Below, one piece after another: positions 41,090 to 59,995 of a stretch of 64,000 nt of DNA. The notes under the pieces were generated by a model that worked only from the letters and a program-made list of their open reading frames with translations, did no database searches and was not told where the DNA came from. Position numbers and translations under genes: made by a program. The DNA comes from a bacterium (GTDB taxonomy: Bacteria; Myxococcota_A; Polyangia; HGW-17; JAJRWW01), in the NCBI GenBank assembly GCA_043825095.1, contig JBDRSE010000156.1, positions 125,309 through 189,308 of the forward strand. The letters are read 5' to 3'. Position 1 is the stretch's first letter; each line of letters opens with the position of its first letter.

Positions 41090-41122
41090 TCAGGCGCGAA
41101 CAGCCTACCCTGTCAGTTGAGA

Positions 41123-41595
41123 TGAACACACGCACGCTCAGAGCCCATTTGAAGGCAAGAGGATGGTCGCAAAACGAGCTGGCAAGCCGCATCGGCGTGA
41201 GTCGTCAGGCGGTTTCACTCTGGCTCAAACGCCCAGAAATATCGGTCCGCAGCAACCACCTGTTGAGCGTGAGCAAGGCCCTCGGTATCCCGGTGGAGTC
41301 GCTGGTGCAGCCGCTTCCCGCGCTTGGAGACGAGGGCGATCACGAACTGCTCCGCGCCACGTATCTGTGGGACCGCCTGTATCCGGATCTCGATGATTTC
41401 GCGATTGCCGTCAACCGGTGGGAGCCTTCCGCCGTGGGCCGCCTGGTGCAGGTCAGCGGACTGTTCGTGGCGGAGCGACTCCTGGGACGCGCGGTGTGGA
41501 AGAAGTTCGACCTGTACAAGCACCACATTCATTCCGCGCGCCGGCAGCAGCTGGAAGGCCTGGTCAAATGGCACGAGCACCCGACGCGCGACTAG
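41123..41595 (+). CDS. XRE-family (Cro/C1-type HTH) transcriptional regulator, putative antitoxin
   Basis: N-terminal HTH LKARGWSQNELASRIGVSRQAVSLWLKR; overlaps the downstream toxin-like gene. Confidence 0.65.
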
Positions 41596-42305
41596 CCCAA
41601 CGGGTGCTTTCGCCGCCGCTCTATCGCGCTCTCCGGCACGTGTTTGCGCAGGAGCCGGCCGGGTGTATGCTCGTCGGCGGAACAGCTCTAGCCGGCTACT
41701 ACGCGGGCCACCGTCGTTCCGATGATCTGGACCTGTTCGTCCGCGACCAGTCCGCGCTCCGGGCGGCCGTCGGCGCGGTCGAAGCACTGACCCGGCTCGG
41801 CGCTGTGCTCCACCCCCGACAACGCACTCCCCAGTTCTACGACGCAACTTGTGAGCTTTCCGATCACGCCTTCACAGTGCAGGTGGTTGTCGACGCACCT
41901 CTGCACCAGGTCGGTCAGCTCAGCCGCGCCAAAGACGGCGTGTCCGTCGCCACCCTCGAAACCCTGCTCAAGCAAAAGGCCGCCACGCTGGTCAGTCGCT
42001 GCTCCGAAAAGGACCTCTACGATCTGCAGTGGCTCCTGCAGGCCCATTCCGATCTGAAGCTCGATGCTCTCGTGGCGCTGGGTTCTCAAATCGACGGTGG
42101 GATGACTGCCGAGTCCGCGGTTGTCAGCCTGGTCGGCGCCACGCTCCGGCGGGCCGCGTGCGACTTCTCAATCGCCCAGGACAGCGCCGCCGTCTACCAG
42201 GACATCACCACCCTCAGAAAGTCCCTGGTGCAGGCATTCGAAAAGCTCGCCCGCAAAGAGCCCATCGGCGCCTTCGGCGACCTCGTCCGCAGCCTCAAGA
42301 CCTGA
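41568..42305 (+). CDS. Nucleotidyltransferase AbiEii/DUF1814-family toxin-like protein
   Basis: GGTALAGYYAGHRRSDDLDLFV motif typical of AbiEii-type NTases; ATG at 41568 overlaps the upstream HTH gene by 28 nt. Confidence 0.55.
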   Translation: MARAPDARLAQRVLSPPLYRALRHVFAQEPAGCMLVGGTALAGYYAGHRRSDDLDLFVRDQSALRAAVGAVEALTRLGAVLHPRQRTPQFYDATCELSDHAFTVQVVVDAPLHQVGQLSRAKDGVSVATLETLLKQKAATLVSRCSEKDLYDLQWLLQAHSDLKLDALVALGSQIDGGMTAESAVVSLVGATLRRAACDFSIAQDSAAVYQDITTLRKSLVQAFEKLARKEPIGAFGDLVRSLKT

Positions 42306-42365
42306 AACAGGCCTCGACCCTGAAACAGACCGAACGCAGAACCGCCGGAGCCTAGGCAATTCTCC

Positions 42366-43124
42366 CTAGGGATAGACGTTGTCGATGCACAGGGCGGTGT
42401 CGTCCGTGGCCAGGGTGCACCAGTAGTCCACGCCCTGTCCTTCGTCGGTGCACCAGGGGTGGAGATCCTGCAGGCTCACGGTCTCCGACCCGGCGAGGGT
42501 GTCGGTGACGCAGCCGCTGTGACTGACCCCGTCAGACTGGCAGAACAGGCAGTAGATCGCGTCGGCCACCGTGTTGGAGACTACGCCCTCGATCAGGCTG
42601 CCGCCCGTGCCGCAGGCGCCCCCGGCGATCGCGCTCACGGCGGGGACGCGGTAGTTGCAGTCGTCCGAGCAGTAGTCGACATAGGGGCTGCCCACGGGCG
42701 CGCAGGCCCGGTCCCATCCCCCGAGGCTCACGCAGCACAGGCTGTCGCACGTGCTGTCATCGATGCAGCTGGGCGAGCAGGTGGCGGGATAGTTCGGCGG
42801 ATCGCCGATACACAGCTCGTCGCTCTCACAGGTCTCGCTGCCGCAAGTCCCGGGCTGTCCGAACTCGGCACAGGAGTGCGCAGTGCACCAGCTCGCCTCG
42901 ACGCAGACGCCGGCCCCGCCGTTGTCGGCGCACACCTCGGTGGGTCCACAGTCGCCGCTGTCGTCACAGTCGGCCCCCTGGACGCAGTCGCCGAGCAGGC
43001 AGATCTCGGACGTGCCGTCAGACTCCGGACAGCCGCCGAGGCTCAACACGGCCACCAGGCCGACCGCCCCGAGCGCCGTCCGCAGGCCCGCGCCCCTGGC
43101 CCGCGCTGTTTTCGAAATGCTCAT
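42366..43124 (-). CDS. Cys-rich secreted lipoprotein
   Basis: Signal peptide + lipobox LGGC; ~40 Cys in 250 aa. Confidence 0.5.
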   Translation of the reverse strand: MSISKTARARGAGLRTALGAVGLVAVLSLGGCPESDGTSEICLLGDCVQGADCDDSGDCGPTEVCADNGGAGVCVEASWCTAHSCAEFGQPGTCGSETCESDELCIGDPPNYPATCSPSCIDDSTCDSLCCVSLGGWDRACAPVGSPYVDYCSDDCNYRVPAVSAIAGGACGTGGSLIEGVVSNTVADAIYCLFCQSDGVSHSGCVTDTLAGSETVSLQDLHPWCTDEGQGVDYWCTLATDDTALCIDNVYP

Positions 43125-43282
43125 CTCGTGCCTCCCCGGGGCGCCTACGCCGCGCTACGGTGTCGCCGCTGGGCGCCTCATTGATCCAGACGATCGAAGC
43201 GGACGAAACCCAATCTGACCCGCTCCAAGCCAGAGTGACATTGTCGTGCGAACGCCCGGACGGGTCAAGGAGCGCCGAAGCG

Positions 43283-43330
43283 TTGGTGAGCGCCGGTGAG
43301 CGCCGGAGCGCCGGTGAGCGCCGGGAGGGT
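43283..43330. repeat. Short tandem repeat (GGTGAGCGCC x3-4) in the WD40 gene upstream region
   Basis: gttggtgagcgccggtgagcgccggagcgccggtgagcgccggg. Confidence 0.5.
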
Positions 43331-43495
43331 GTTCCGCAAAGGCGGGGGCGGGAGCCTGCGATGGGCCTGCGTTTTGCTCATTTGAGGAAGTATCGGATTT
43401 GGCGGCCTGAGGGTCGAGGACGGGCTGGCAGATTTTTTTGGGAATACCCATCGATCTTTGCACATCGTGTTTCTGGGATGGGATACGGTACTGGT

Positions 43496-44635
43496 ATGCA
43501 CCTGAAAATCAACGCCATGACCCGTGGGTTGAAACGTCTGAATGCGTGGGTCTGCGCTTGGCGCGCGCCGCTGTTGGCGGGCCTGCTCGTGGCTTGCGCG
43601 GGTGGAGCGGGGAAACCCGATCAAGTTGTGCGGCACCGCTCACCTCCCCCGGACGTACGACACCGACTGTTTTCCACCGGCCCGGCCCGGCCTTCCGCGG
43701 GTGACGTTCCGCCGGCGGCTGGAACGTCTACTCAAAAATTCACGCCCCGGGGCAAGTTCGTCAACTGTGGGGATGGAGGTCCCCATGCGTTGGTTATCAG
43801 TGGAGACGGGCGCTGGTTGGTCACAACCGAGGATCGGTATCAGGTAGTGCGCCGCGAGCTGCCCTCAGGGCGAAAGGTCTGGACGCATCGGCAGGGATCA
43901 AAGGCATTTTGCCTGGCGATCTCAGGCGACGGTCGCACCGTGGCGTCAGCGGGGCTCGACAGAGAGGTGCATCTCCTCGACGCCGCCACGGGCCGGCAGC
44001 GTCGCAAGGTGCGAAATAAAGGAGCGGCATCCGGGGTCGCCCTCGGCCCTGCGGGTCGCTGGATTGCGTTGGCAGACCAGGAGCAGTCTGGACTGCTCCT
44101 GATGCCCCTTCCATCCGGCAAGGGTCGGCGCCTCAAGGCGGCTGGGGCAGCCATGGCCGTCGCGTTTTCCCGAGGCGGTCACCTGGCGGTCGGCGACGAA
44201 GCTGGAGTGGTGAGGTTGATTGCGCCTTCATTGCGCAGTGTCACCGCAACGCACCGTGGTTTCAAACCCTACATCACCGTCGTGGGATTTTCCCCAGATG
44301 GCAAGCAACTCGCCGGCGCCGGAATCAAGGGTGAGATTCGGGTGTGGAAGACCTCCTCGGGCCGCTTGCTACGGTCCGTTTCCCTCCCTGCACCTTGGTC
44401 CGTCTCCTTCAGCCATGATGGCAAGCTCTTGGCCTCTGGTGGAGTACAAGGCCTGCGGATTTGGGAACTGGCGACGGGACGCGTTCTATTCGAGCGCAAG
44501 GGCGGTGACTACCTGTTAGCGGCCTTCAGCCCGAAGGGTCGTCAATTGATCGTCATCGGCAGCCGCAATCAGTACTCCCCCCGGATGCGCCGGACAGGGC
44601 GTACGCGCTGCCAACTGGCGATCTGGAGCTACTAG
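43496..44635 (+). CDS. WD40-repeat lipoprotein
   Basis: Lipobox LVAC; multiple WD40-like blades (VASAGLDREVHLLDAATGR, LAGAGIKGEIRVWKTSSGR, LASGGVQGLRIWELATGR). Confidence 0.65.
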   Translation: MHLKINAMTRGLKRLNAWVCAWRAPLLAGLLVACAGGAGKPDQVVRHRSPPPDVRHRLFSTGPARPSAGDVPPAAGTSTQKFTPRGKFVNCGDGGPHALVISGDGRWLVTTEDRYQVVRRELPSGRKVWTHRQGSKAFCLAISGDGRTVASAGLDREVHLLDAATGRQRRKVRNKGAASGVALGPAGRWIALADQEQSGLLLMPLPSGKGRRLKAAGAAMAVAFSRGGHLAVGDEAGVVRLIAPSLRSVTATHRGFKPYITVVGFSPDGKQLAGAGIKGEIRVWKTSSGRLLRSVSLPAPWSVSFSHDGKLLASGGVQGLRIWELATGRVLFERKGGDYLLAAFSPKGRQLIVIGSRNQYSPRMRRTGRTRCQLAIWSY

Positions 44636-44819
44636 ACCCTGCTGGCTCGGTCGAGTCACTTTGGAGACGCATGTGCAGCGTCCGGCCACGGTCCGCATGA
44701 TGGCCTGATCCCGGAATGATCGTCGTCCTTCAAGGAATAGCGGAATACGGTACACTCAGCGCGGCTCATCACTGGAGCCCTCCGTCGCCAAATCGCTCGA
44801 TCAAAGGAAAGGGATTTCC

Positions 44820-45863
44820 GTGATGTGTGCTCAAGCTTTCCGCTCCGCTTTTTTTGTCGTGACCGTACTGGTACTGACCAGCTCGGGTTGCACCAAGAAG
44901 CCGAAGGGAGAGGCCTCGAAAGGTGCTGACGACAGCCTATCCGCCATGAAATCCGTCCCCTTGGCAAAGCCCAGGCCCGAGGGTTCCGCCACGACTGTCC
45001 CACGCCCGCGAGAGGTCCCACGCCCGCGAAAGGCATCGACGGACAAGGCGTACACCATCCTGTTCCACCGCCCCCTGCGGGTGGGGCTGCGGTATCGGTT
45101 GTTGGTCAAGGCTCGCAATGACACGCGGACCACTGCAGACGGCAAGGTGCTGCCCGTGCAGACCGTCAAGTTCAGCTATGTCTACGAAGCGGTGGTCACG
45201 GTCCTGGCCGTGGATCCCAAGGGCTGGCCCACCCGAGAAGACCACAAGGTGGTCCAGCTCAAGGCGACCAAGGCCGGGAAGACCTGGGATGTCTTGGCGC
45301 GAGATGTTGTGGTGTCGGCGTCAGCCACGACTGAGAGGAAGTTCTACAAGGTGGCTGGCAAACCCGTGTCCAAGGAGGTCCTGTTCTATCTGGCCAGGGC
45401 GATCGATCTGAACGAGCGCGCTGACCCGAGCAACGACGATGTGTACGGCCCCGGAGGTCCGAAAAAACCGGGCGACCAATGGAAGGTCAATCGCGAAAAG
45501 CTGCTCGAACAGCTCCATAAAAACCTCAAGAATCAGGTCGTGCTGCCAAAGGCAAGCGACGTCATAAGCCGTGTGCGTCTGGTGGGCGCCAGGAAGAGAA
45601 AAGGCATCGATGAGCTGCTCGTCCTGGCCGTGGTCAGAGTCGAAAATCTCATCCCCAACTTCCCAAACGTCAAGGGCACCGCTGGGACCCTGAAAATGGA
45701 GCAAGGATCGATGCTTCCGCAAAACACCCGGTCCATTGCCGTCGAGCAGGCGCAAAATATTGTCATACACTTCGAGGGTCTGGTCAAAAAAGGCGACCAG
45801 CGAATCAAGCTGGTGCTCCACGGCACAGCGATCACGGAAGTGAAGCGGTCTCCCATCCCCTAG
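44820..45863 (+). CDS. Hypothetical lipoprotein
   Basis: Lipobox SSGC; RBS aaaggaaaggga; no recognisable domain. Confidence 0.45.
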   Translation: MMCAQAFRSAFFVVTVLVLTSSGCTKKPKGEASKGADDSLSAMKSVPLAKPRPEGSATTVPRPREVPRPRKASTDKAYTILFHRPLRVGLRYRLLVKARNDTRTTADGKVLPVQTVKFSYVYEAVVTVLAVDPKGWPTREDHKVVQLKATKAGKTWDVLARDVVVSASATTERKFYKVAGKPVSKEVLFYLARAIDLNERADPSNDDVYGPGGPKKPGDQWKVNREKLLEQLHKNLKNQVVLPKASDVISRVRLVGARKRKGIDELLVLAVVRVENLIPNFPNVKGTAGTLKMEQGSMLPQNTRSIAVEQAQNIVIHFEGLVKKGDQRIKLVLHGTAITEVKRSPIP

Positions 45864-45961
45864 CAGCCGCGTTAATGCCGGTGTGTTCGGCCAACTGGGC
45901 GGCACACCAGCTGGACAGTGATTCGCGTTCTGGAGACGAAATCCGGACGCGAGAGCTGGGG

Positions 45962-46031
45962 GAGCTTCATGTACGTCGGTCCCCAGGGCATCGTGCGCGG
46001 GACCGCGGCCACGCTGCTGGGCGCGGCGGCA
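45962..46031 (+). pseudogene. Orphan fragment of urocanate hydratase gene (duplicate of hutU 47648-47715)
   Basis: ~68 bp with ~85-90% identity to the internal hutU segment encoding SFMYIGPQGIVHGTTITLLGAG; no flanking hutU sequence. Confidence 0.45.
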
Positions 46032-46078
46032 AAAGATTTCTTACGCATCTGATCTTACTGGTATGATGCGTACGCGCG

Positions 46079-46891
46079 ATGCATCGGAGGCAGGCAATGG
46101 GAAAGTGGAAGCCTGAGAAATGTCGCAGGAGGACGCCCAACCTCCAAAACCAGCGATCTCAATGGGCAACGCTTGCCCTGCTCGCTGTAGGTGCCTGCAT
46201 GCAGGCCGCTTGCGGTAGCGGAACGCGGCGCCGAGGCTCCGGAAACGTGCCCGCTCCGCCCCTCAGACCCTCCGCAGCCCACAGGTCCTCCGCGACGCCC
46301 AAGCCCTCCGCGACGCCCAGGCCCTCCACGACGCCCAGATCCTCGGCGGCCCACAGGCCCACTCCGACCTCCAAGCCACCTCGACCTCGGGCAGCCGACA
46401 AGGGTCTCCCTGGGTGGAATGGTTTCGGTGGGAAGCAACCATCGCGCCCTGCCGGGCGGAGCCGCGACACCGCTGTGCTCTCGGACGGCGAGCAACCCCT
46501 GGGCGCCCTGGTCGGCCACTCTGTCGGCCCCTACGGTGCAGGGAAGTACCGCAGTTCTGTTCCCAGGGTCTTCATGAGTCGTGCGAAAGTGATTGGCCCC
46601 CTGGACGCCAGCGCGATCCGCAAGGTCGCCCGGCACCACCTGGCCGAGGTCAGGCACTGCTACGTCAGCGTGGGCATTGCCGCGAACCGCAACCTGAAAG
46701 GAAGGGTCGAAGTCAGATTCACGATCAAGCCAACCGGATCGGTAGGCACATTGCGGATTGCTCGTTCCACGCTTCACCATGCCAGGACAGAGAGCTGTAT
46801 CAAGAGCGCCATGCGTCGCTGGCGCTTTCCCAAATCCGCGAGAGGCAGCACCACCGTCAATTACCCCTTCACCTTTGTGTCCAAGGGGTAG
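46079..46891 (+). CDS. Lipoprotein with Pro/Ser/Thr-rich repeat linker and C-terminal AgmX/PglI (TonB-C-like) domain
   Basis: Lipobox AVGAC; in-frame 21-bp tandem repeat (46286-46348) encoding PSATPKPSATPRPSTTPRSS; C-terminal block HHLAEVRHCY...GRVEVRFTIKPTGSV...CIKSAMRRWRFP. Confidence 0.5.
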   Translation: MHRRQAMGKWKPEKCRRRTPNLQNQRSQWATLALLAVGACMQAACGSGTRRRGSGNVPAPPLRPSAAHRSSATPKPSATPRPSTTPRSSAAHRPTPTSKPPRPRAADKGLPGWNGFGGKQPSRPAGRSRDTAVLSDGEQPLGALVGHSVGPYGAGKYRSSVPRVFMSRAKVIGPLDASAIRKVARHHLAEVRHCYVSVGIAANRNLKGRVEVRFTIKPTGSVGTLRIARSTLHHARTESCIKSAMRRWRFPKSARGSTTVNYPFTFVSKG

Positions 46892-46972
46892 TGAGCGCCA
46901 GGGCAATCCTGCGCCTTGCCGAAGGGGTTTGAACTACGGGGTCGAAGGAGCGAGCCGCGAGGAGAGCCGACC

Positions 46973-49036
46973 ATGAATGACAGGACCGACAGGACCGACG
47001 TGAAGGACGCCGAGTTCCAGCAGGCCGTTCGCGCGGGGATTCCGCAGGAGCTGCCGGAGCTGCGGCCCGTAGACGATACGGTGGACCATGCGCCGCCGCG
47101 GCCGCAGGTGCTCAAAGGGCCGGAGCGCAGGCGGGCGTTGGAGAACGCGCTGCGGTATTTTCCGGAGTCGATGCACCGGGAGCTGGCGCCGGAGTTTGCG
47201 CGGGAGCTGGCCAAGGACGGGCGGATCTACATGCGGCGGTTCCGGCCGCGCTACGAGATGTACGCGCGGCCCATCGACGAGTATCCGGCGCGATGTCGGC
47301 AGGCGGCGGCGGTGATGGTGATGATCCAGAACAACCTGGACCCACGGGTGGCGCAGCATCCGCACGAGCTGGTGACCTACGGCGGGAACGGTACGGTGTT
47401 CCAGAACTGGGCGCAGTACCTGCTTACGATGGAGTATTTGTCGGAGATGAGCGAAGAGCAGACCCTGGTGCTCTATTCGGGGCATCCGCTAGGGCTGTTC
47501 CCTTCGCACGCCGACGCGCCGCGGCTGGTGGTCACCAACGGGATGGTGGTGCCGAACTACAGCTCTGGGGACGACTACAACCGCATGGCGGCGCTGGGGG
47601 TGACGTCCTATGGGCAGATGACCGCGGGGAGCTTCATGTACATCGGTCCCCAGGGCATCGTGCACGGCACCACGATCACGCTGCTGGGTGCGGGGCGGGT
47701 GTTTTTGGGGCTGGAGAACGACCAGGACCTTCGGGGCAAGGTGTACGTGACGTCGGGGTTGGGGGGGATGAGCGGCGCCCAGGGCAAGGCGTCGGTGATC
47801 TGCGGGGCGGTGGGGGTGATCGCGGAGATCAACCCTCTGGCGGCCAAGAAGCGCCACGAGCAGGGGTGGGTGGACGAGGTGGAGTCGGACCTGGACAAGG
47901 TGCTCCGGCGCATGGACGCGGCCCGGAAGGCGAAGGAGCCCCTGGCCCTGGCGTACGTGGGCAACGTGGTGGACCTCTGGGAGCGGTTCGTGAAAGCGGA
48001 TGTGGAGGTGGAGCTGGGCTCGGATCAGACCTCGCTGCACATTCCGTATACGGGCGGGTACTACCCGGCGGGGCTGAGCTTGGAGCAGTCCCGGGAGCTG
48101 ATGGGTCGGGACCCGGAGGGGTTCAAAGAGCGGGTGCACGCGTCGCTGCGGCGGCAGCTGGACGCCATCAACACCCTGGCGGAGCGCGGGATGGCCTTCT
48201 GGGACTACGGCAACGCGTTCCTGCTCGAGGCGTCGCGCGCCGGGGCGGCGGTGGCCGGGGATCGGCCGTCCGGCTTCCGGTACGCGTCCTACGTGGAGAA
48301 CATCATGGGGCCGCTGTGCTTCGACTACGGCTTCGGGCCCTTCCGCTGGGTGTGTACCAGCGGTGAGCCGGCGGACCTGCGGGTCACGGATCAGCTGGCC
48401 GCCGAGGTGCTCGCCGAGCTGATGGAGACGGCGCCCTGCGAGATCCGCGGCCAGCTGGGAGACAACCTGCGCTGGATCCGGCGGGCGGAGGAGCACCGGC
48501 TGGTGGTGGGCTCCCAGGCGCGGATCCTCTACGCCAACGAGGAGGGCCGCGTGAGGATCGCCCGGGCCTTCAACCGGGCCATCCGGGACGGCCGGGTGCA
48601 GGGGCCGGTGGTGCTCGGCCGGGACCACCACGACGTGTCGGGCACGGATTCTCCTTATCGCGAGACGGCCAATATCTACGACGGGAGCCAGTTTTGCGCC
48701 GATATGTCCGTGCACAACGTGATCGGCGATGCGTTCCGGGGCGCGACCTGGGTGAGCCTGCACAACGGCGGCGGCGTGGGCTGGGGCGAAGTGATGAACG
48801 GCGGGTTCGGGCTCGTGCTCGACGGCAGCGACGACGCGGATCGACGGCTGGCGGCCATGCTCTTCTGGGACGTGAACAATGGCATCGCGCGCCGGGCCTG
48901 GGCCCAGAACCCCGGCGCCGAGCACGCGGCCCGGGCCGTGATGGAGCGCGAGCAACGGATTCGGGTCACCCTGCCGAGCCATGCCGATCAGGACCTGCTC
49001 CAAGAAGCGCTGCGGGCGGCATTCTCAGAGAGCTGA
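46973..49036 (+). CDS. hutU: Urocanate hydratase
   Basis: Full-length urocanase; RBS gaggagag; ATG 46973. Confidence 0.9.
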   Translation: MNDRTDRTDVKDAEFQQAVRAGIPQELPELRPVDDTVDHAPPRPQVLKGPERRRALENALRYFPESMHRELAPEFARELAKDGRIYMRRFRPRYEMYARPIDEYPARCRQAAAVMVMIQNNLDPRVAQHPHELVTYGGNGTVFQNWAQYLLTMEYLSEMSEEQTLVLYSGHPLGLFPSHADAPRLVVTNGMVVPNYSSGDDYNRMAALGVTSYGQMTAGSFMYIGPQGIVHGTTITLLGAGRVFLGLENDQDLRGKVYVTSGLGGMSGAQGKASVICGAVGVIAEINPLAAKKRHEQGWVDEVESDLDKVLRRMDAARKAKEPLALAYVGNVVDLWERFVKADVEVELGSDQTSLHIPYTGGYYPAGLSLEQSRELMGRDPEGFKERVHASLRRQLDAINTLAERGMAFWDYGNAFLLEASRAGAAVAGDRPSGFRYASYVENIMGPLCFDYGFGPFRWVCTSGEPADLRVTDQLAAEVLAELMETAPCEIRGQLGDNLRWIRRAEEHRLVVGSQARILYANEEGRVRIARAFNRAIRDGRVQGPVVLGRDHHDVSGTDSPYRETANIYDGSQFCADMSVHNVIGDAFRGATWVSLHNGGGVGWGEVMNGGFGLVLDGSDDADRRLAAMLFWDVNNGIARRAWAQNPGAEHAARAVMEREQRIRVTLPSHADQDLLQEALRAAFSES

Positions 49037-49280
49037 GCGCCCGCGCCCGGCGGCGCAGAGATCATCAGATCTCCCCGCAAACCAGCCCCCAATCAGAGCC
49101 TCGATTAGTCATCCCTAACTTGTCGAATTGTTGTCCCATCATTATATAATCATGGGCTAAAACTATTATTATAGGATTATAGTTTAAACAAATAAGCAAA
49201 TATTCTTTCTGGGTGTTAAACTTCTGTTTGTTTTAGCATAATATGTTGAAATTCTAGTCCATTTCCCCGCCAACTTTTCC

Positions 49281-49309
49281 TTGACACACTGCGACGTGCT
49301 TGCTACCAA
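49281..49309 (+). promoter_or_regulatory. Sigma70-like promoter TTGACA-N17-TACCAA upstream of the dsrMKJOP operon
   Basis: ccTTGACAcactgcgacgtgcttgcTACCAAcc; nearly identical element at 55841-55869. Confidence 0.4.
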
Positions 49310-49417
49310 CCGGCTGAATATCGGTTTGATTTTTTGTTCTACGCTCAGGGCAAGCGCTCTGAGACGCCGCTTTCTCCCCGCTGTGCGAGGGTGAGCGCGG
49401 CGCGGAGGAACCGCATC

Positions 49418-49948
49418 GTGAGTCTGGAGGAGATCCTTCAGGGCAAGAGGCAGACCATCCTGCAGCGGTGGCTCGACCTCGTGCTCGAGAGCTACTCCCC
49501 TGACACCTCCAAGTTCCTCAAACGCAAGAAGGACCAGTTCGGCAACCCGGTCGGCCATGCGCTCACCCAGGGGCTCGGGGGGCTCTGCGACGCCGTGCTC
49601 GACGGGCGCGACCTGGACGAGGTGCAGGCCCTGCTCGAAGACGTGATCCGGATTCGCGCGGTGCAGGAGCTCCCGCCCTCGGTCGGCGTCGGCTTTGTCT
49701 TCGGGCTGAAGCAGGCCTTGGACGACGTGCTGCGCGACGCTCAGGTGAGCGCCGAGGAGCGGCGGGAGCTGGATCGTCGCGTGGACGCCCTCGCCCTGCG
49801 GGCCTTCGACCACTACGTGGCCTGTCGCCACAAGATCTACGAGCTGAGAATCTACGAGCTGAAGAGTCAGACCATGGACGTGCGGGAGCTGGTGGCCCGC
49901 CGCAAGGCTCAGCAGAAGGACAAACCATCGGACAACAACGGGGCGTAG
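49418..49948 (+). CDS. Hypothetical protein, first gene of the dsrMKJOP operon
   Basis: GTG start with RBS ggaggaa (49404-49410); no confidently recognised domain. Confidence 0.4.
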   Translation: MSLEEILQGKRQTILQRWLDLVLESYSPDTSKFLKRKKDQFGNPVGHALTQGLGGLCDAVLDGRDLDEVQALLEDVIRIRAVQELPPSVGVGFVFGLKQALDDVLRDAQVSAEERRELDRRVDALALRAFDHYVACRHKIYELRIYELKSQTMDVRELVARRKAQQKDKPSDNNGA

Positions 49949-49972
49949 CAGTACGCCAGGCAAGGTAGCTCC

Positions 49973-50986
49973 ATGAGTGTATTCGTTGCTTTCGTCGCAT
50001 TTCTGGTCGTCCTGGGCCTGGGATACGTCGGCGGGAAAGTGACCGGGCTGCACATGCTCTTCGGGATGGTCATCCCGTACGCGGCCTTCTTCATTTTCCT
50101 CGTCGGGGTGATCCTGCGCATCTACAAGTGGGCGCGGTCTCCGGTCCCCTTCCGGATTCCCACCACGAGTGGACAGCAGAAATCCCTGGACTGGATCAAG
50201 TCGAACAAGTTCGACAATCCGAGCTCCACCTGGGGCGTCATCGGGCGGATGCTCGCCGAGGTGCTGCTGTTCCGGTCGCTGTTTCGGAACACCAAGGCCG
50301 AGGTGCACGACGGGCCGCACGTGGCCTACGGATCGTCCAAGTGGCTCTGGATCGGCGCCATGGCGTTTCACTGGTGCTTCCTGATCATCTACCTGCGCCA
50401 CTTCCGGTTCTTCCTGGAGCCGGTCCCGCTGTTCGCGAGCTACATGGCCGACGTGGACGGCTGGCTGACCATCGGGATCCCGGCGATCTACCTCACCAAC
50501 ATCCTGATCGTGCTGGCCCTGTCCTATCTGCTGGTGCGGCGGCTGCTGAATCCCCAGGTCCGCATCATCTCGCTCCCGGCGGACTACTTCCCGCTGCTGC
50601 TCATCCTCGGGATCGTGCTCAGCGGCATGGCGATGCGGTACCTGGAGTGGTTCCGGGTGGACCTCATCAAGGTGAAGGAGTTGGCGCTGGGCCTCGTCGC
50701 CTTCAGCCCCACGGTGCCCAAGGGCATCGGGACGCCCTTCTACGTGCACCTGTTCCTGATCTCCGTGCTGCTGGTCTACTTCCCCTTCTCCAAGCTGATG
50801 CACGCCGGGGGCGTGTTCCTGAGTCCCACCCGGAACCTGGCGAACAACAACCGGTTCGTGCGGCACGTAAACCCCTGGAACCCGGCGGTGGAAGTGCACG
50901 AGTACGACCACTGGGAGCACGAGTACAAGGACAAGATCGTGGCCTGCGGCTTGCCGCTCGACAAACCGGCTGACGAGGAAGCATAA
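49973..50986 (+). CDS. dsrM: DsrM-type membrane cytochrome b (NarI/HdrE family)
   Basis: Five TM helices with conserved His; NarI-like. Confidence 0.75.
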   Translation: MSVFVAFVAFLVVLGLGYVGGKVTGLHMLFGMVIPYAAFFIFLVGVILRIYKWARSPVPFRIPTTSGQQKSLDWIKSNKFDNPSSTWGVIGRMLAEVLLFRSLFRNTKAEVHDGPHVAYGSSKWLWIGAMAFHWCFLIIYLRHFRFFLEPVPLFASYMADVDGWLTIGIPAIYLTNILIVLALSYLLVRRLLNPQVRIISLPADYFPLLLILGIVLSGMAMRYLEWFRVDLIKVKELALGLVAFSPTVPKGIGTPFYVHLFLISVLLVYFPFSKLMHAGGVFLSPTRNLANNNRFVRHVNPWNPAVEVHEYDHWEHEYKDKIVACGLPLDKPADEEA

Positions 50987-50989
50987 GCA

Positions 50990-52663
50990 ATGTCATCTGG
51001 ATTCCCCAAGAATTTCCCGGCGCCCGAAGATCTGGCGGCGGTGGATTTGGAAAAAAAGCACCTCAAGAACTGGATGGACCCGTCCGTCAACTTCGAGGGT
51101 CGGCGCGGCACCTGGTCCTACCCGGCCGCCGCCAAGAACCTCAGGTACCTGGGTCTGCCGAACCCGCGGGAGTGGTCCCCCACCGACGACGACTGGAAGC
51201 TGCCCGACAGGTGGCAAGACACCGTGCTCGACGGCATGGCCGACCGGCTCGAGCGGTTCCGCTCCTTCCAGGTGATGATGGACATCTGCGTGCGCTGCGG
51301 CGCCTGCGCGGACAAGTGCCACTTCTTCATCGGCTCCGGCGACCCGAAGAACATGCCGGTGCTCCGGGCGGAGCTGCTCCGGTCCATCTACCGGCGACAC
51401 TTCACCACCACGGGCAAGATCCTGAAGTCCCTGGCGGGTGGGCGGGAGCTCACCGCCGAGGTGATGAAGGAGTGGTACTACTACTTCTTCCAGTGCACCG
51501 AGTGCCGCCGCTGCTCGGTGTTCTGTCCCTACGGCATCGACACCGCCGAGGTGACGATGATCGCCCGAGAGCTGATGAACCTCATCGGGCTGAACATCAA
51601 CTGGGTGCTCGAGCCGGCGGCCAACTGCCAGCGCACGGGCAACCACCTCGGCATCGAGCCCCACGCCTTCGTGGACAACATCGACTTCTTCTTGGACGAG
51701 ATCGAGGAGAACACCGGGTTTCGCCCCGAGGTGCCCATCAACAAAAAGGGCGCCGACGTGCTCTTCGTCACGCCTTCGGGCGACATCTTTGCCGATCCGG
51801 CGATCTACACCCTCATGGGCTACTTCCTGCTCTTCGACTTCCTGAAAAAGGAGCACGGGTTCAACTGGACCATGAGCGCCTACGCGTCCGAGGGCGGCAA
51901 CTTCGGCCTGTTCACCTCCAACGAGATGATCAAGCGGCTCAACGCCAAGATGTACCGCGAGGCGGACCGGCTCGGCGTGAAGTGGATCCTGGGCGGCGAG
52001 TGTGGCCACATGTGGCGGGTGGTCAACCAGTACATGGACACCATGAACGGCCCGGCCCCGTCGAAGATGATCGTCCCGAAGTCGCCCTTCACGCCGACCA
52101 TCTTCGAAAACGCCGCGTCCACGAAGATGGTGCACATCACCGAGTTCACCGCGGACCTGATCAAGCACAACATGCTGCCGCTGGACCCGTCCCGGAACGA
52201 CCGGTACCGGGTCACCTTCCACGACTCCTGTAACCCGGCCCGCGGCATGGGCCTGTTCGAGGAGCCGCGGTACATCCTGCGGAACGTCTGCAACAACTAC
52301 TGGGACATGCCGGAGTCCACCATCCGCGAGAACACCTTCTGCTGCGGGGGCGGCGCCGGCCTGGGCAACGACGAGAACTTCGAGATGCGCATGCGGGGTG
52401 GCCTGCCCCGGGGCAACGCCGTCAAGTACGTGCGGGACAAGCACGGCGTGAACCTGCTCACCTGCGTCTGCGCCATCGACAAGGCCACGCTGGTGCCGGT
52501 GTGCGACTACTGGGCCGAGGGCGTGGGCGTGGCCGGGATCCACGAGCTGGTGGCCAACGCCCTGGTGTTCAAGAAGGGCGAAGAGCGGAAGCTGAACCTG
52601 CGCGGCGAGCCCCTCAAGGACGAGGAAGAGGCAGCAGCAGAGACGGAGGGCAATGATGCCTGA
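50990..52663 (+). CDS. dsrK: DsrK-type iron-sulfur protein (HdrD family, CCG domain)
   Basis: CVRCGACADKCHF and CTECRRCSVFCPYGI 4Fe-4S motifs, C-terminal CCGGGAG CCG domain. Confidence 0.8.
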   Translation: MSSGFPKNFPAPEDLAAVDLEKKHLKNWMDPSVNFEGRRGTWSYPAAAKNLRYLGLPNPREWSPTDDDWKLPDRWQDTVLDGMADRLERFRSFQVMMDICVRCGACADKCHFFIGSGDPKNMPVLRAELLRSIYRRHFTTTGKILKSLAGGRELTAEVMKEWYYYFFQCTECRRCSVFCPYGIDTAEVTMIARELMNLIGLNINWVLEPAANCQRTGNHLGIEPHAFVDNIDFFLDEIEENTGFRPEVPINKKGADVLFVTPSGDIFADPAIYTLMGYFLLFDFLKKEHGFNWTMSAYASEGGNFGLFTSNEMIKRLNAKMYREADRLGVKWILGGECGHMWRVVNQYMDTMNGPAPSKMIVPKSPFTPTIFENAASTKMVHITEFTADLIKHNMLPLDPSRNDRYRVTFHDSCNPARGMGLFEEPRYILRNVCNNYWDMPESTIRENTFCCGGGAGLGNDENFEMRMRGGLPRGNAVKYVRDKHGVNLLTCVCAIDKATLVPVCDYWAEGVGVAGIHELVANALVFKKGEERKLNLRGEPLKDEEEAAAETEGNDA

Positions 52664-53234
52664 AGACAAGAAGTCGGAGACGGCGGAGAAGCCGGAGACG
52701 GCGGAGAAGACCGAGAAGGCGAAGAAGGCGGCGGAGTACAAGCCGCACGTCTACAAGTATCCGCCCACGGAGCAGGCCAGGTCCGACATGCCCATGGTCT
52801 TTTTCGGGCTGCTGGTCTTCGTCGGGCTGATGCTGGCGGCCACCGTTGGCAATCGGGTCCTCCACAAGTTCAAGCAAAAGCCCGTGCTGGAGCTGCCCAA
52901 GCACGAGAAGAACTGCGTCCGGGACGTCCAGTTCATGCGCGAGAACCACATGAAGCTGCTCAACGACTGGCGGGACCAGGTGGTGCGCACGGGCGTCCGG
53001 TTCGAGCAGATCCCCCGGCGGGACGACCACGGCAAGGTCCTCAAGGACGGCCAAGGCAAGATCGTGCACCAGAAGATCGAGCGGAGCCTGACCAAGACCT
53101 GCCTGCGGTGCCACGACAACCCCCGGGCGTTCTGCGACCGGTGTCACGAGTACGCCGGCGTCACGAAGAAGGGCGGCCTGCTGGGTTGTTTTTCCTGCCA
53201 CATCCAGCCGAACCCCAAACCCGCGCGGAGATAA
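52653..53234 (+). CDS. dsrJ: DsrJ-type triheme cytochrome c
   Basis: Three CxxCH motifs (CLRCH, CDRCH, CFSCH); N-terminal TM/signal; RBS gacggaggg. Confidence 0.7.
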   Translation: MMPEDKKSETAEKPETAEKTEKAKKAAEYKPHVYKYPPTEQARSDMPMVFFGLLVFVGLMLAATVGNRVLHKFKQKPVLELPKHEKNCVRDVQFMRENHMKLLNDWRDQVVRTGVRFEQIPRRDDHGKVLKDGQGKIVHQKIERSLTKTCLRCHDNPRAFCDRCHEYAGVTKKGGLLGCFSCHIQPNPKPARR

Positions 53235-53237
53235 CCC

Positions 53238-54005
53238 ATGGACAGTGGAAAGAGAAATTTCCTGAAGATCGCCGGGCTGACCGCGGTGGGCGGGTACGTG
53301 GGCGTCAGGGCCGTGGGGGCCATCGCCGCGGGGCCCCAGAAGGCCAAGCAGACGCTGGCGCTCGTCATCGACACGCGCAAGTGCAAGGGCGACTGCCCGG
53401 ACTGCATCACGGCGTGCCACCGCGAGCACAACGTGCCCGAGCGGCACAACCCCAATTTCAAGCCCCCGGGGCCGTCTGCCAAGCAGGCCATCAAGTGGAT
53501 CTGGGTGGACACCTTTGCCGGCGCCTTCCACGAGCAGATCCACCAGCGTACGGGCAGGCGCAAGGACCCCTTGCTCGTGCTGTGCAACCACTGCGACGAT
53601 CCTCCCTGCACCCGGGTCTGTCCCACCAAGGCGACCTGGAAGCGGGAGCAGGACGGCATCATCACCATCGACATGCACCGCTGCATCGGCTGCCGGTTCT
53701 GCATGGCGGCGTGCCCCTACGGCTCCCGGTCCTTCAACTTCCACGACCCCCGCAAGTCGCTCAAGAGCGTCACGCCGGGGTTCCCCACCCGCACCCTCGG
53801 GGTGGTGGAGAAGTGCAACTTCTGCGAGGAGCGGCTCGAACGGGGTCTGCAGCCGGCCTGCGTGGAAGCCTGTGAGAAGAAGGCGATGTCCTTCGGTGAT
53901 CTGAACGACGACAAGTCGCCGGCTTCGGTGGCCCTCAAGGGCAACTTCACCATAACCCGCAAACCGCACCTCGGGACCGGTCCCGAGGTGTACTACATTC
54001 TGTGA
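53238..54005 (+). CDS. dsrO: DsrO-type periplasmic 4x[4Fe-4S] ferredoxin (Tat-like signal)
   Basis: KRNFLKIAGLTAVGG Tat-like signal; four Cys clusters typical of PsrB/DsrO. Confidence 0.75.
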   Translation: MDSGKRNFLKIAGLTAVGGYVGVRAVGAIAAGPQKAKQTLALVIDTRKCKGDCPDCITACHREHNVPERHNPNFKPPGPSAKQAIKWIWVDTFAGAFHEQIHQRTGRRKDPLLVLCNHCDDPPCTRVCPTKATWKREQDGIITIDMHRCIGCRFCMAACPYGSRSFNFHDPRKSLKSVTPGFPTRTLGVVEKCNFCEERLERGLQPACVEACEKKAMSFGDLNDDKSPASVALKGNFTITRKPHLGTGPEVYYIL

Positions 54006-54012
54006 GGCGCCA

Positions 54013-55164
54013 ATGCTCGAGAAAGCGTTAACCGGTAGCAAGCGGTATTGGGCCTGGATCTTCCTGCTGCTCTGCCTGTGCGGCATGGGCGGCGGCCTGT
54101 GGCTGTATCAGCTCAACGAAGGGCTGGGCGTCACGGGCCTGAACCGGGACGTGTCCTGGGGCCTGTACATCGCCCAGTTCACCTTCCTGGTCGGAGTGGC
54201 CGCCTCGGCGGTGATGGTGGTCCTGCCCTACTACCTCCACGACTACAAGGAGTTCGGGAAGATCACCATTCTGGGTGAGTTCCTGGCCATCCCGGCCTGC
54301 ATCATGTGCATGGCGTTCATCGTCGTGGACATGGGCCGGCCCGACCGCGTCGTGTACATGTTCATGCACGCCTCGCCCAACTCGGTCATGTTCTGGGACA
54401 CCGTGGTGCTCAGCGGCTACCTGGGCCTGAACATCGTGATCGGCTGGACCATGCTCACCTCGGAGCGCAAGGGCGTGCCCGCGCCGAAGTGGGTCAAGCC
54501 CCTGATTTACCTGTCCATCCCCTGGGCCGTCTCGATCCACACGGTGACGGCGTTCCTGTATCAGGGCCTGCCCGGCCGGGGCTTCTGGATGACCGCCATC
54601 ATGGCGCCGCGCTTCCTGGCCTCGGCCTTTGCCGCGGGTCCGTCCTTTTTGATCCTGATGTGTCTGCTGGTGCGGCGCTTCACCAAGTTCGATCCGGGTG
54701 ACAACGCCCTGCGCAAGCTCGGCCAGATCGTGACCTACGCCATGTTCATCAGCGTGTTCTTCTTCCTGATGGAGGTGTTCACGACCTACTACTCGAACAT
54801 CCCGGAGCACAAGCACCACTTCTACTACCTGTTCCGGGCCGGCCCCTGGTGGCTGCTCGCCGCGATGTGGGGCTTTGCCGCGCTGGCGGTGATCGGGCTG
54901 GTGATCATGGTCAATCCCCGCACCCGCAACCACATCCCCACCCTCGCGGTGGGCGCGGGCTGCGTTTTCGCGGCCAGCTGGTTGGAGAAGGGCCTCGGGC
55001 TCGTCATCGGCGGGCTCACGCCGAACCCCATGGGAAAATACACGGTCTACACGCCCACCCTCGTGGAGATCGGCATCGCCGTGGCCGTGTGGTCCTTTGG
55101 GATGCTCATCCTGACCGTGCTGTACAAGGTCGCCACCGGCGTCAAGGAAGAGCAGGCCGCGTAG
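54013..55164 (+). CDS. dsrP: DsrP-type NrfD/PsrC-family integral membrane protein
   Basis: ~10 TM helices, NrfD-family. Confidence 0.75.
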   Translation: MLEKALTGSKRYWAWIFLLLCLCGMGGGLWLYQLNEGLGVTGLNRDVSWGLYIAQFTFLVGVAASAVMVVLPYYLHDYKEFGKITILGEFLAIPACIMCMAFIVVDMGRPDRVVYMFMHASPNSVMFWDTVVLSGYLGLNIVIGWTMLTSERKGVPAPKWVKPLIYLSIPWAVSIHTVTAFLYQGLPGRGFWMTAIMAPRFLASAFAAGPSFLILMCLLVRRFTKFDPGDNALRKLGQIVTYAMFISVFFFLMEVFTTYYSNIPEHKHHFYYLFRAGPWWLLAAMWGFAALAVIGLVIMVNPRTRNHIPTLAVGAGCVFAASWLEKGLGLVIGGLTPNPMGKYTVYTPTLVEIGIAVAVWSFGMLILTVLYKVATGVKEEQAA

Positions 55165-55840
55165 CCTGGGCGCTCAAAACCACCCGCTCCCTCCTCTCTC
55201 TCTGTTTCAGTCTGTCCAGGGCGCCGCCGTCGATGCGGTGGATCGTCCAGTCGACCAGGGGCTTGGCGGGCTCGCGTAGAAGTTGATGGCCGGCTGGTTC
55301 CAGTCGAGCACCGCGAGCTCCAAAAACGGATCGGATCCACACAACTCGGGACCTGTGAGATCCCCTGGAACGCGTGGGAGCACCGGTGGCGGATCCGCGG
55401 GGGCCCCGCCCGATGACCCGGGCTGACCTACGGATGGGCGCGAGAGATGATCCTTTCGAATCACTGAGCTTGCGGAGCAATAGCTTCGGGAATCTGACTA
55501 TGAGAAACAGGTGTTTATCACGATGCAATCATCGGAATATTTGCGCATGGCAGATGGTAGACATCCCTGGAAAACACCGATGCCGGAATTGGCTGAGCAG
55601 GCCCCTCTCAGGCCCGATCCTGGCCGCTGTTCCCAGGTCGTGAGTTGCAGATTTTCACTGAGAATGGAACGCAAAAAGCGTGGTTTCGAGCCTCGATTTT
55701 CAGGGCACAATCCTGCGATTTTCCAGGTGATTGCCAGGATCTTCGTCAGTGGCTGGGCGCAAAGAAAACACCTGTTTTTATAGAGTATTTTCTCTGTTAG
55801 GCGCGACTCATTAAACTGCTCTTCGGAGAGCAAGTTTCTC

Positions 55841-55869
55841 TTGACACGCTGCATTGCGCTTGTTACCAA
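55841..55869 (+). promoter_or_regulatory. Sigma70-like promoter TTGACA-N17-TACCAA upstream of dsrC
   Basis: tcTTGACAcgctgcattgcgcttgtTACCAAgc; same architecture as 49281-49309. Confidence 0.4.
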
Positions 55870-56013
55870 GCAGTACACAAGTTGAAAAGACAATCGGTTT
55901 GCCCGTGAAGACAGTCACGACCTTTCGGTGCGGCGCGACTGGGTGGTAGCGCGGCGGACTAGAATTCAGCACCGGGTGGAAAAACGTTTCGGAGAATTCT
56001 GGAGGCCTTTCAC

Positions 56014-56331
56014 ATGCCTATGTTCGAGCAGGGTGACGTCAAGATCGAAGTCGATGAAGATGGATTCATCGTCAACCCCGACGATTGGAGCGAAGCAGTT
56101 GCAGCCGCGCTCGCCGGTGGCGAGGGCGTCGACGAGCTCACCGAAGAGCACTGGAAGGTGATGAACTACCTCCGTGACTACTATCAGAAGTTCGGTGTGG
56201 CTCCTATGATCCGCAAGCTCTGTAAGGAAACCGGTTTCCCGCTCAAGAGGATCTATGATCTGTTCCCCAGCGGGCCTGCGAAGGGTGCCTGCAAGCTGGC
56301 TGGACTTCCCAAGCCCACCGGTTGCGTCTGA
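56014..56331 (+). CDS. dsrC: DsrC (TusE/DsrC/DsvC family) with both C-terminal arm cysteines
   Basis: ...KGACKLAGLPKPTGCV C-terminus; RBS ctggagg. Confidence 0.85.
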   Translation: MPMFEQGDVKIEVDEDGFIVNPDDWSEAVAAALAGGEGVDELTEEHWKVMNYLRDYYQKFGVAPMIRKLCKETGFPLKRIYDLFPSGPAKGACKLAGLPKPTGCV

Positions 56332-56515
56332 TCCGGAGACCCGGTTGTACTCCTTCGCGGCGATCGGGCGACCGCATCGCCATCACCGTCGCTTTTCCCC
56401 TTTGCCCGTAACGAAACGCTGCGGCGGCGATTTGTCGCGCCGAGGGGCGTGGTGCGCGTGGAGTGTCACCTGAGCCAAGTTATCAACCACTGGGAGTCCC
56501 CCTAAGGAGTAGCCT

Positions 56516-57751
56516 GTGATGAGCCAAGCCGAGAGCAAACCGATTCTGGTTGTTGGCGGCGGAGTGAGCGGCATCAGCACCGCGCTGGAGCTGAGCGAGT
56601 TCGGCCGGCCGGTGATTCTCGTCGAGAAGGAGCCCTTTCTCGGCGGGAAGGTGGCCGCCTTCAACAAGTACTTTCCCAAGCTCTGTCCGCCCACCTGCGG
56701 GCTGGAGATCAACTACAAGCGTCTCCGGAAAAACGCGAATGTCACCGTGCACACCATGGCGCAGGTGACGCAGGTCAAAGGCGAGGCGGGCAGCTACGAG
56801 GTCACGATCGAGGTGCAGCCGCGCTTCGTAAACGACCGCTGCACCGCCTGCGGCGACTGCGCCGAGGCGTGCGCGGCGGAGCGCGAGGACACCTTCAATC
56901 AGGGCCTCGGCAAGACCAAGGCGATCTACACCGCGGGGAACATGGCGTACCCGAACCGGTTCGTGCTGGACCGGGCCGCCTGCGCCGAGGGGGATCTGGC
57001 CAAGATCAAGGACGCGTGCAAGTTCGGCGCGGTGGACCTAGACCAGACTGCGCAGACCCTGACCGAGCAGGTGGGGGCCATCGTCTGGGCCACGGGGTGG
57101 AGCTCCTACGACGTGTCCAAGGTGGAGTACCTCGGCTTCGGCAGGCTCCCCGACGTGATCACGAACCTGATGATGGAGCGGCTGGCCGACAACAGCGGGC
57201 CCACGGGAGGGAAGCTGTTACGGCCGTCGGACGGCAAGGAGGTCGAGAGCGTGGCCTTCGTGCAGTGCGCCGGCTCCCGGGACGTCAACCACCTGGCCTA
57301 TTGCTCCGGTGTCTGCTGCCTGGCCTCGCTCAAGCAGATCAACTATGTGCGGCAGGCGGCTCCGAACGCGAAGATCTACATGTTCCACATCGACGTGCGG
57401 GCCGGCAAGTACGAGGAGTTCTACACTCGGGTGTGTGGCGAACAGAACGTGGAGATCATCAAGGGCAAGGTCGCGGGCATCTTCCCCGAGGGCGACAAGC
57501 TGCGGCTGCAGGTGGAGAACATCGAGTCCGGGGAGTCGCTCAAGGTCGACGTGGACCTGGCGGTGCTGGCCACCGGCATCGTGCCCAACACGGCCGAGCT
57601 GCCTTTTGAGGGCACCAGGGACGACTACGGCTTTCTGATGCTCGACCCGACGAGCGGGATGATCCCCACCGGGTGCGTGCGTCGGCCGGCCGACGTCTCC
57701 ACCGTGGTGCAGGACGCAACCGGAGCCGCCATGCGGGCTCTCAGCCTTTGA
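56516..57751 (+). CDS. qmoA: QmoA-like FAD flavoprotein (HdrA family)
   Basis: FAD-binding ILVVGGGVSGISTALEL; RBS aaggagt; possible ATG at 56519. Confidence 0.75.
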   Translation: MMSQAESKPILVVGGGVSGISTALELSEFGRPVILVEKEPFLGGKVAAFNKYFPKLCPPTCGLEINYKRLRKNANVTVHTMAQVTQVKGEAGSYEVTIEVQPRFVNDRCTACGDCAEACAAEREDTFNQGLGKTKAIYTAGNMAYPNRFVLDRAACAEGDLAKIKDACKFGAVDLDQTAQTLTEQVGAIVWATGWSSYDVSKVEYLGFGRLPDVITNLMMERLADNSGPTGGKLLRPSDGKEVESVAFVQCAGSRDVNHLAYCSGVCCLASLKQINYVRQAAPNAKIYMFHIDVRAGKYEEFYTRVCGEQNVEIIKGKVAGIFPEGDKLRLQVENIESGESLKVDVDLAVLATGIVPNTAELPFEGTRDDYGFLMLDPTSGMIPTGCVRRPADVSTVVQDATGAAMRALSL

Positions 57752-57765
57752 GTAGAGGTACCCCA

Positions 57766-59961: not shown

Positions 59962-59995
59962 GATTCCCTAACCCTAGGAACCATCGAGGTCGAAC

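Follow-up and report, generated by a model that had tools for sequence, protein, structure and literature searches.

In a stretch of 64,000 nucleotides from an uncultured member of the Myxococcota (contig JBDRSE010000156.1; this whole 64-kb stretch is called the window here), three elements of the type TTGACA-N17-TA(C/G)CA(A/C) are located upstream of genes for sulfate reduction. Together with a like-built element in front of dsrA, which lies past the end of the window, they represent, with a probability of about 0.75, the core promoters of the sulfate-reduction operons, most likely read by the primary sigma-70/sigma-A holoenzyme. An initial annotation had noted the perfect -35 hexamer, the non-canonical -10 hexamer and conserved spacer bases, and had taken them to suggest that a dedicated regulator or sigma factor controls the sulfur island. 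Both hexamer features are indeed observed, but the -35 hexamer is the housekeeping consensus and does not support the step to a special factor; the elements are very probably ordinary promoters of the sigma-70 family with a -35 and an extended -10 region, and as such no evidence for a dedicated sulfur regulator or sigma factor. The four elements are the following.

49281 to 49309, plus strand: predicted promoter of dsrT-dsrMKJOP, TTGACACACTGCGACGTGCTTGCTACCAA / TTGACAcactgcgacgtgctTGcTACCAA, footprint in six lineages; -35 TTGACA at 49281-49286, spacer of 17 bp, TGc (extended -10) at 49301-49303, -10 TACCAA at 49304-49309; predicted transcription start at about 49316-49317

55841 to 55869, plus strand: predicted dsrC promoter, TTGACACGCTGCATTGCGCTTGTTACCAA / TTGACAcgctgcattgcgctTGtTACCAA, footprint in eight lineages; -35 TTGACA at 55841-55846, TGt at 55861-55863, -10 TACCAA at 55864-55869; predicted transcription start at about 55876-55877

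63690 to 63718, plus strand: predicted aprBA promoter, TTGACAGCCCCCCGGCGACGGGGTAGCAC / TTGACAgccccccggcgacggggTAGCAC, footprint in five lineages; -35 TTGACA at 63690-63695, spacer of 17 bp that lacks TGn and has GGg instead, -10 TAGCAC at 63713-63718; predicted transcription start at about 63725

12747 to 12775 of the same-strain contig L090, past the window end: fourth like-built promoter, in front of dsrA, with cTTTACA-N14-TGcTACATA in the source genome

The near-identity of the first two elements and the presence of the related TTGACA-N17-TAGCAC on the plus strand ahead of aprB had been described before and could be confirmed; the leading c of the two strings reported initially corresponds to positions 49280 and 55840. 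The -35 hexamer is an exact TTGACA at all three sulfur sites of the window, and the spacer is 17 bp long at all three and in every dsrT, dsrC and aprB orthologue, while that of dsrA measures 17 bp in the source genome and 18 bp in the relatives. TTGACA followed after 17 bp by a hexamer that starts with TA is the signature of group-1/2 sigma-70 factors. All elements are co-oriented with the first gene downstream, whose start codon follows after about 100-110 nt (dsrT), about 140-145 nt (dsrC) or about 180-190 nt (aprB), and the same position and orientation upstream of the first gene are found in the relatives. Orientation, distance and conservation thus argue for the initial view that these are promoters of the sulfur units, with the correction that the first gene after the element at 49281 is dsrT and not dsrM. 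This gene encodes an RsbRD_N domain protein, and Anantharaman et al. described dsrT as always located 5' of dsrMKJOP and suspected it to be regulatory (PMC6018805; for the identity of dsrT see also PMC13047784); therefore the first unit is dsrT-MKJOP, and dsrT is the predicted first gene transcribed from this promoter.

Also the statement that the elements lie in a locally AT-richer setting holds, as the 100 nt 5' of each -35 hexamer have a GC content of 32%, 45% and 39%, respectively, compared to 65.7% in the window. These upstream regions can be delimited as follows.

49130 to 49280, plus strand: AT-rich DNA 5' of the dsrT -35 with 26-39% GC, including a block AATATT...ATT...CCA that is partly conserved in relatives; the stretch could be an UP element or a region of curved DNA

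55760 to 55840, plus strand: AT-rich DNA 5' of the dsrC -35, including the invariant block (A)AGTTTCTC that adjoins the -35

63590 to 63689, plus strand: AT-rich DNA 5' of the aprB -35 with 39% GC

The region upstream of dsrT additionally harbors, at 49135-49188, the almost perfect palindrome CCCATCATTATATAATCATGGG as well as a direct repeat of 24 nt with a spacing of 27 nt, neither of which is kept in relatives.

It could be argued that the likeness of the elements is accidental and that the sequences are without function, and by our own estimate it would indeed be unremarkable per se if, somewhere in 64 kb, two arbitrary 29-mers agreed at 23/29 positions. The elements upstream of dsrT and dsrC are identical at 23 of 29 bases; in shuffled upstream regions of 300 nt, the best 29-mer identity never exceeded 21 in 500 trials. 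The motif search that had been proposed as a check was carried out across the window: allowing three mismatches at most, TTGACACNCTGCN5GCTTGNTACCAA as a degenerate pattern matched at these two sites only, and not once in 100 shuffles. The more general TTGACA-N17-TASYMM matched exactly the three sites of the window, with an expectation of 0.04. As no shuffle reproduces the pattern, as equivalent placement is seen before four operons, and as the elements form islands of conservation in up to eight lineages, hardly any credence is left for a chance origin, which we consider effectively refuted already by the phylogenetic footprint.

For this footprint, syntenic loci from related uncultured Myxococcota were compared, in which the encoded proteins share 56-66% (DsrT), 61-70% (CobA/HemD) and 87-90% (DsrC) identity with those of the window; two same-strain contigs that were found via their exact DsrC (L001, L002) are identical to the window and therefore uninformative. 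Among the DsrC loci from the genome collection (L003-L082), a dsrC promoter of the same type occurs in L003 and L004 only; of the remaining loci, the nearest that were examined (L005-L007) have dsrC directly after another gene. The upstream regions yielded the consensus CTTGAC(A/C)C-N11-yTGnTACC(A/T)A for dsrT (six lineages), TTTCyCTTGACAC-N11-TTGnTAC(C/T/G)(A/C)A for dsrC (eight lineages), and CTTGACA-N14-GGnTAGCA(A/C) for aprB (five lineages, one of them with TAAGCA), while three relatives have CTTGACC-N15-TGCTACA(T/C)A in front of dsrA, which makes four lineages with the source. In each case the promoter stands out from the DNA upstream: invariant columns number 18/29 against 20 in the preceding 100 nt for dsrT, 14/29 against 12/100 for dsrC, 13/29 against 11/90 for aprB, and 16/29 against 30/100 for dsrA. 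Among the dsrT, dsrC and aprB orthologues, the -35 TTGACA is invariant except for one TTGACC. The footprint thus suggests that the three elements are evolutionarily conserved and very probably functional promoters of the dsrT-MKJOP, dsrC and aprB units.

The comparison also shows which of the spacer bases matter. T-12 and A-11 of the -10 hexamer are invariant, and a TG at -15/-14, usually as TTG, is found in 14/14 dsrT/dsrC sites and in 4/4 dsrA sites, with GGn in the aprB promoters where dsrT and dsrC carry TGn. Most other spacer bases drift between the lineages. Of the internal CTGC...GCTTG that had been reported as conserved, only the TGn within GCTTG is retained; the CTGC is common to the two sites of this genome but is not kept in the dsrC orthologues. 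Because TG is invariant and CTGC drifts, the conserved signal in the spacer is that of an extended -10 element.

A dedicated factor, such as a group-2 sigma factor or a promoter-bound regulator, could nevertheless be imagined to read TA(C/G)CA(A/C) together with the spacer bases and thereby to co-control the sulfur island. In its favor, TACCAA is present at two non-homologous promoters and retained at 11 of the 14 dsrT/dsrC sites across lineages, and the four sulfur promoters all have a -10 hexamer of the type TA(C/G)NA(A/C), in which position -7 is occupied by A at all four dsrA sites and at 18 of the 19 pooled dsrT/dsrC/aprB sites, with C at the remaining one. The spacers of dsrT and dsrC are also excessively alike, and the RsbRD_N family of dsrT is linked to sigma-B partner switching, with a regulatory function of DsrT having been hypothesized (PMC6018805). 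Against this stand the -35 hexamer, which is the exact consensus of the primary sigma factor, and the reduction of the conserved spacer bases to TGn. The advice to look for a regulator gene near dsrAB brought up two candidates, dsrT itself and a small zinc-finger open reading frame (ORF) treated below, but a sigma or anti-sigma gene was found neither in the window nor in the adjoining 8 kb (contig L090). A regulator of the Crp family is encoded in the window at 8494-9243, 40 kb away from the sulfur promoters. Promoters of the same build are also found at genes unrelated to sulfur metabolism.

Among the 13 TTGACA hexamers of the window, 7 lie between genes in a promoter setting and are followed, after 16-17 bp, by a hexamer that begins with TA. 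Apart from the sulfur sites, these comprise the following.

5334 to 5361, plus strand: TTGACA-N16-(TGg)TATTTT upstream of uvrA

12825 to 12852, plus strand: TTGACA-N16-TATACT upstream of lexA

24817 to 24845, plus strand: TTGACA-N17-TATTGT upstream of nuoB

36547 to 36575, minus strand: cTTGACA-N17-TACATC upstream of a tRNA-Arg/tRNA-Lys operon, with the tRNA start 16 nt past the -10

The tRNA promoter shows that the clade builds a stable-RNA promoter in the same manner, and in two relatives (L095, L096) it reads TTGACA-N17-TAATAC, likewise without T at -7. In addition, metagenomes were scanned with the dsrT/dsrC composite CTTGACAC-N12-TTGnTACCAA, which has 17 fixed bases. The scan yielded 98 stretches with 81 readable sites in 32 sequence families, and tRNA genes were called with aragorn across the whole loci. 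Only 3 of the 81 sites are the dsrT/dsrC promoters of this clade. As many as 24, belonging to 7 families with 52-72% GC, are located 12-54 nt 5' of a tRNA gene on the same strand, mostly tRNA-Val, compared to roughly 0.03 expected by chance (a rough estimate), and other families precede ThiS-like, NrdR, PanC, DUF899 and SLT genes. On metagenome contigs within L097-L176, from several unrelated lineages, tRNA-Val is preceded by CTTGACAC-N12-TTG(G/T)TACCAA, in many of them together with the palindrome TTGGTACCAA.

The motif is hence not confined to a coherent gene set: in the window, its architecture occurs at uvrA, lexA, nuoB and tRNA genes, and in the metagenomes the full composite occurs at tRNA, nrdR, panC and thiS-like genes. 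TACCAA may be a -10 form that recurs at stable-RNA promoters. With TACCAA included, the exact composite precedes stable-RNA (tRNA-Val/Lys) and housekeeping genes of other bacteria, which points to the primary sigma factor. With the same build at uvrA, lexA, nuoB and tRNA genes, with CTGC not conserved, and with the composite before tRNA genes elsewhere, the initial proposal that the sulfur island has a regulator or sigma factor dedicated to it finds no support, and we think that such a factor is quite unlikely to read these elements.

Several observations nevertheless weigh against assigning the elements to the primary sigma factor. The A (rarely C) at -7 and the C or G at -10 recur in almost every lineage, in contrast to the T at -7 in the promoters of uvrA, lexA and nuoB, and the sulfur promoters might form a distinct sub-class that is read by a group-2 sigma factor. 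The spacers of dsrT and dsrC in the window are more alike than expected of two independent promoters (11/17 identical, P=6e-4; 9/15 without the TG, P=0.004), with 7-10/17 identical bases in the relatives as counted by hand. The program's own sigma-70 scan omits all three sites, because it requires a T as the last base of the -10 hexamer. Also, the metagenomic tRNA evidence was drawn from other taxa than this clade, and that the elements act as promoters at all is something we infer from sequence comparison.

In the mechanism that we favor, region 4 of the primary sigma factor would bind the consensus -35 TTGACA and region 3 would bind the TG at -15/-14, which is the conserved part of GCTTG, while the alpha subunits, with their C-terminal domains, possibly contact the AT-rich DNA upstream. 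These contacts with double-stranded DNA would compensate for the poor -10 hexamers (TACCAA, TAGCAC and TACATA), in which T-12 and A-11 are kept and T-7 is lacking. Such an arrangement could recruit the polymerase strongly to genes of very high expression and leave open-complex formation as the weak and possibly regulated step, as at tRNA and rRNA promoters. The melting step in Myxococcota could be helped by CdnL, which stabilizes sigma-A open complexes; the sigma-A promoters of M. xanthus share a common consensus -35, differ in the -10 and are assisted by CdnL (PMC4182748). High expression of such genes is documented in cable bacteria and Desulfurivibrio alkaliphilus, where dsrC and aprAB are among the top-expressed genes (PMC13047784).

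Such a layout has precedents. The elements -35, TGn, -10 and UP are combined in a mix-and-match manner, and a "-35/TGn" class of promoters with weak -10 hexamers has been described (PMC2613000). As in E. coli gapA P1 and T4 Pminor of that class (PMC2613000), the -35 of the sulfur promoters is good or matches the consensus, TG stands at -15/-14 one base ahead of the -10 hexamer, and this hexamer is weak or non-canonical, for which the contacts with double-stranded DNA would compensate; the AT-rich DNA upstream may contribute contacts of the UP-element kind. They differ in the A or C at -7 (TACCAA, TACATA), in the aprB promoter that is devoid of TGn, and in belonging to an uncultured myxobacterium. 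Stable-RNA promoters are alike as well, with the identical composite CTTGACAC-N12-TTGnTACCAA before tRNA-Val/Lys in the 7 metagenomic families and the cTTGACA-N17-TACATC of the tRNA-Arg/Lys operon in the window, and both gene sets require very high expression; the sulfur promoters, however, drive protein-coding operons with leaders of 100-180 nt. In Desulfovibrio, Rex and HcpR provide a common cis element before the dsr, apr, qmo and sat operons (PMC4045070), which parallels the shared element described here, but their sites are palindromes of the type TTGTGA-N6-TCACAA, which are absent at these promoters. Finally, the Pcauto motif of acetogens (PMC6873888) is similarly a distinctive promoter motif at core genes of energy metabolism for which a special factor was suspected; in contrast to the standard sigma-70 layout found here, Pcauto is unlike TTGACA/TATAAT, and experiments demonstrated that an activator of the TetR family acts there.

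Other recognition systems were considered for the same regions. Palindromes like those of Rex or HcpR do not occur at the promoters, with 5 hits compared to 9.8 expected; the one weak Rex-like match, at 55903-55920, does not exceed chance, corresponds to a variable part of the alignment with the relatives and resembles an RNA stem. Likewise, the FNR-like TTGAT-N4-ATCAA was not found at the promoters, with totals at or below chance, and the sigma-54 pattern TGGCAC-N5-TTGCW (GG at -24, GC at -12) has no match in the three upstream regions, with totals below chance. Reading the first two elements themselves as a palindrome TTGnnA...TnnCAA pairs, by eye, 6 of 14 positions, which is near chance, and RpoH-like promoters or those of extracytoplasmic-function (ECF)-like sigma factors do not fit the sigma-70-consensus -35 and the spacing. 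A canonical-looking TTTACC-18-TATAAT at 63564-63593, 5' of aprB, is not conserved in the relative L004, and therefore the originally proposed aprB site is preferred. Terminator-like hairpins lie close to two of the promoters: one at 49308-49336, which has a T-run, overlaps the dsrT -10 and the predicted start and could terminate read-through from the urocanase gene, and the other, at 55817-55832, is located near the dsrC promoter. Neither of them is kept in relatives.

A further possibility is that the core promoters are indeed housekeeping promoters, and that coordination is brought about by a transcription factor that binds elsewhere, namely to far-upstream GTTAGKG blocks at about -127 to -220 or to the leaders. 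The features that bear on this are two.

49100 to 49129, plus strand, about -215 to -186: conserved 30-nt block CTCGATTAGTCATCCCTAACTTGTCGAATT, the best-conserved part of the spacer between urocanase and dsrT in six lineages, and possibly a regulator binding site

12370 to 12636 of contig L090, about 2.4 kb past the window end, between aprA and dsrA: ORF of 88 amino acids whose zinc finger is Ogr/Delta-like (E=2e-5 in Pfam, narrowly missing the cut-off)

The core GTTAGKG, which lies inside the 30-nt block, is found on either strand at the conserved positions -200 of dsrT, -212 of dsrC (in relatives), -220 of aprB (63504-63510) and -127 of dsrA, and it is over-represented compared to dinucleotide shuffles in 5 of 8 lineages. 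The zinc-finger ORF is conserved in three relatives (L091, L092, L094) and is a candidate for a small regulator near dsrAB. However, the P values for GTTAGKG are optimistic because the motif was picked post hoc, and it comprises only 7 nt with varying orientation and partner half-site, while three lineages are without the strict form or without enrichment. Searched with a hidden Markov model of the block upstream of dsrT, the other promoters yielded no significant copy, and across the window GTTAGKG is not enriched (5 found, 4.4 expected). We judge control by such an upstream factor to be unlikely.

Taken one step further, the four operons dsrT-MKJOP, dsrC-qmo, aprBA and dsrAB might be co-regulated by a dedicated factor via the special -10 class, the GTTAGKG blocks or both, and candidates for this role would be a group-2 sigma factor gated by DsrT through its RsbRD_N domain, or the Ogr/Delta-like zinc-finger protein. 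We hold this for improbable. The -10 class, the likeness of the spacers, GTTAGKG and the zinc-finger ORF could together betray an extra sulfur-specific layer of control, to which we give a small chance, and the motif can be explained without any of them.

Downstream of the promoters, the predicted leaders were inspected as well.

55870 to 56013, plus strand: predicted 5' leader of dsrC, about 140 nt, conserved in eight lineages with the blocks GGTTTGCC, CGGTGCGGCG and TCAGCACCGGGTGG

This leader could form a long-range stem that starts at GGTTTGCC, and a helix GCACCGGG:CCTGGAGGC could cover the Shine-Dalgarno sequence. In the predicted dsrT leader, the relatives retain a hairpin GCTCAGGGC...GCTCTGAG (49343-49365), in which some changes are compensatory. 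Support from covariation is modest for these leader structures. A search of 48900-64000 against Rfam gave no match at the E-value threshold, and therefore no known leader RNA is present there.

The genes of the sulfur island were called with Pfam and NCBIfam profiles and from the spacing of the ORFs. Their order is urocanase, the promoter at 49281, dsrT, dsrMKJOP, the promoter at 55841, dsrC, qmo-like genes, sirohaem genes, the promoter at 63690, and aprB.

46916 to 49036: urocanase, 5' of the first promoter

about 49418 to 49948, plus strand: dsrT, 176 amino acids, RsbRD_N domain (PF14361, E=2e-18), with a GTG start after the Shine-Dalgarno sequence GGAGGA

49973 to 55164, plus strand: dsrM, dsrK, dsrJ, dsrO and dsrP, tightly packed 3' of dsrT (Pfam/NCBIfam)

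56014 to 56331, plus strand: dsrC (PF04358, E=8e-39)

63907 to 64000, plus strand: 5' end of aprB, which runs past the window end

Between dsrC and aprB, the stretch 56516-63454 encodes a qmoA-like and a qmoB-like gene, followed by a soluble HdrD/CCG-type protein in place of the membrane protein QmoC. Between this group and aprBA lie the genes for sirohaem synthesis, one for the N-domain of cysG and one that is a fusion of cobA/hemD. Beyond the window, contig L090, which was found via the CysG-N protein after the exact CobA/HemD protein had led to a short contig only, continues with aprA, a strong terminator, the 88-amino-acid zinc-finger ORF, dsrA, dsrB, dsrN and a dsrL-like gene; the intrinsic terminator 3' of aprA is located at about 12320-12352 of that contig. 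On the other side of the island, an ORF of 1408 amino acids without Pfam domain (36749-40975) corresponds in public records to a MYXO-CTERM sorting-domain protein with homologues in metagenome-assembled genomes of Polyangia and Kofleriaceae, which are its closest named relatives; this protein assigns the window to the Myxococcota. The ORF is separated from the urocanase gene by about 6 kb of ORFs (40976-46915; HTH_3, AbiEii toxin-like, WD40, TonB_C), which are probably an insertion, as the MYXO-CTERM and urocanase genes adjoin in the relatives L095 and L088.

For the biology of these uncultured and environmentally widespread Myxococcota, the elements define likely start points and control regions of the core operons for sulfate respiration. 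This is of use for the calling of operons (dsrT-MKJOP and not dsrMKJOP), for the reading of metatranscriptomes, and for the selection of native promoters of high strength. A misreading is corrected as well: a perfect -35, conserved spacer bases and an odd -10 need not imply a special regulator, and together they make up the known -35/TGn architecture, which serves tRNA genes too. The A that recurs at -7 and the conserved blocks far upstream raise the question whether an extra layer of sulfur-specific control exists that is possibly linked to DsrT. If the four operons were indeed read by a dedicated factor, be it a sigma factor gated by DsrT or the zinc-finger protein, the function of DsrT would become testable.

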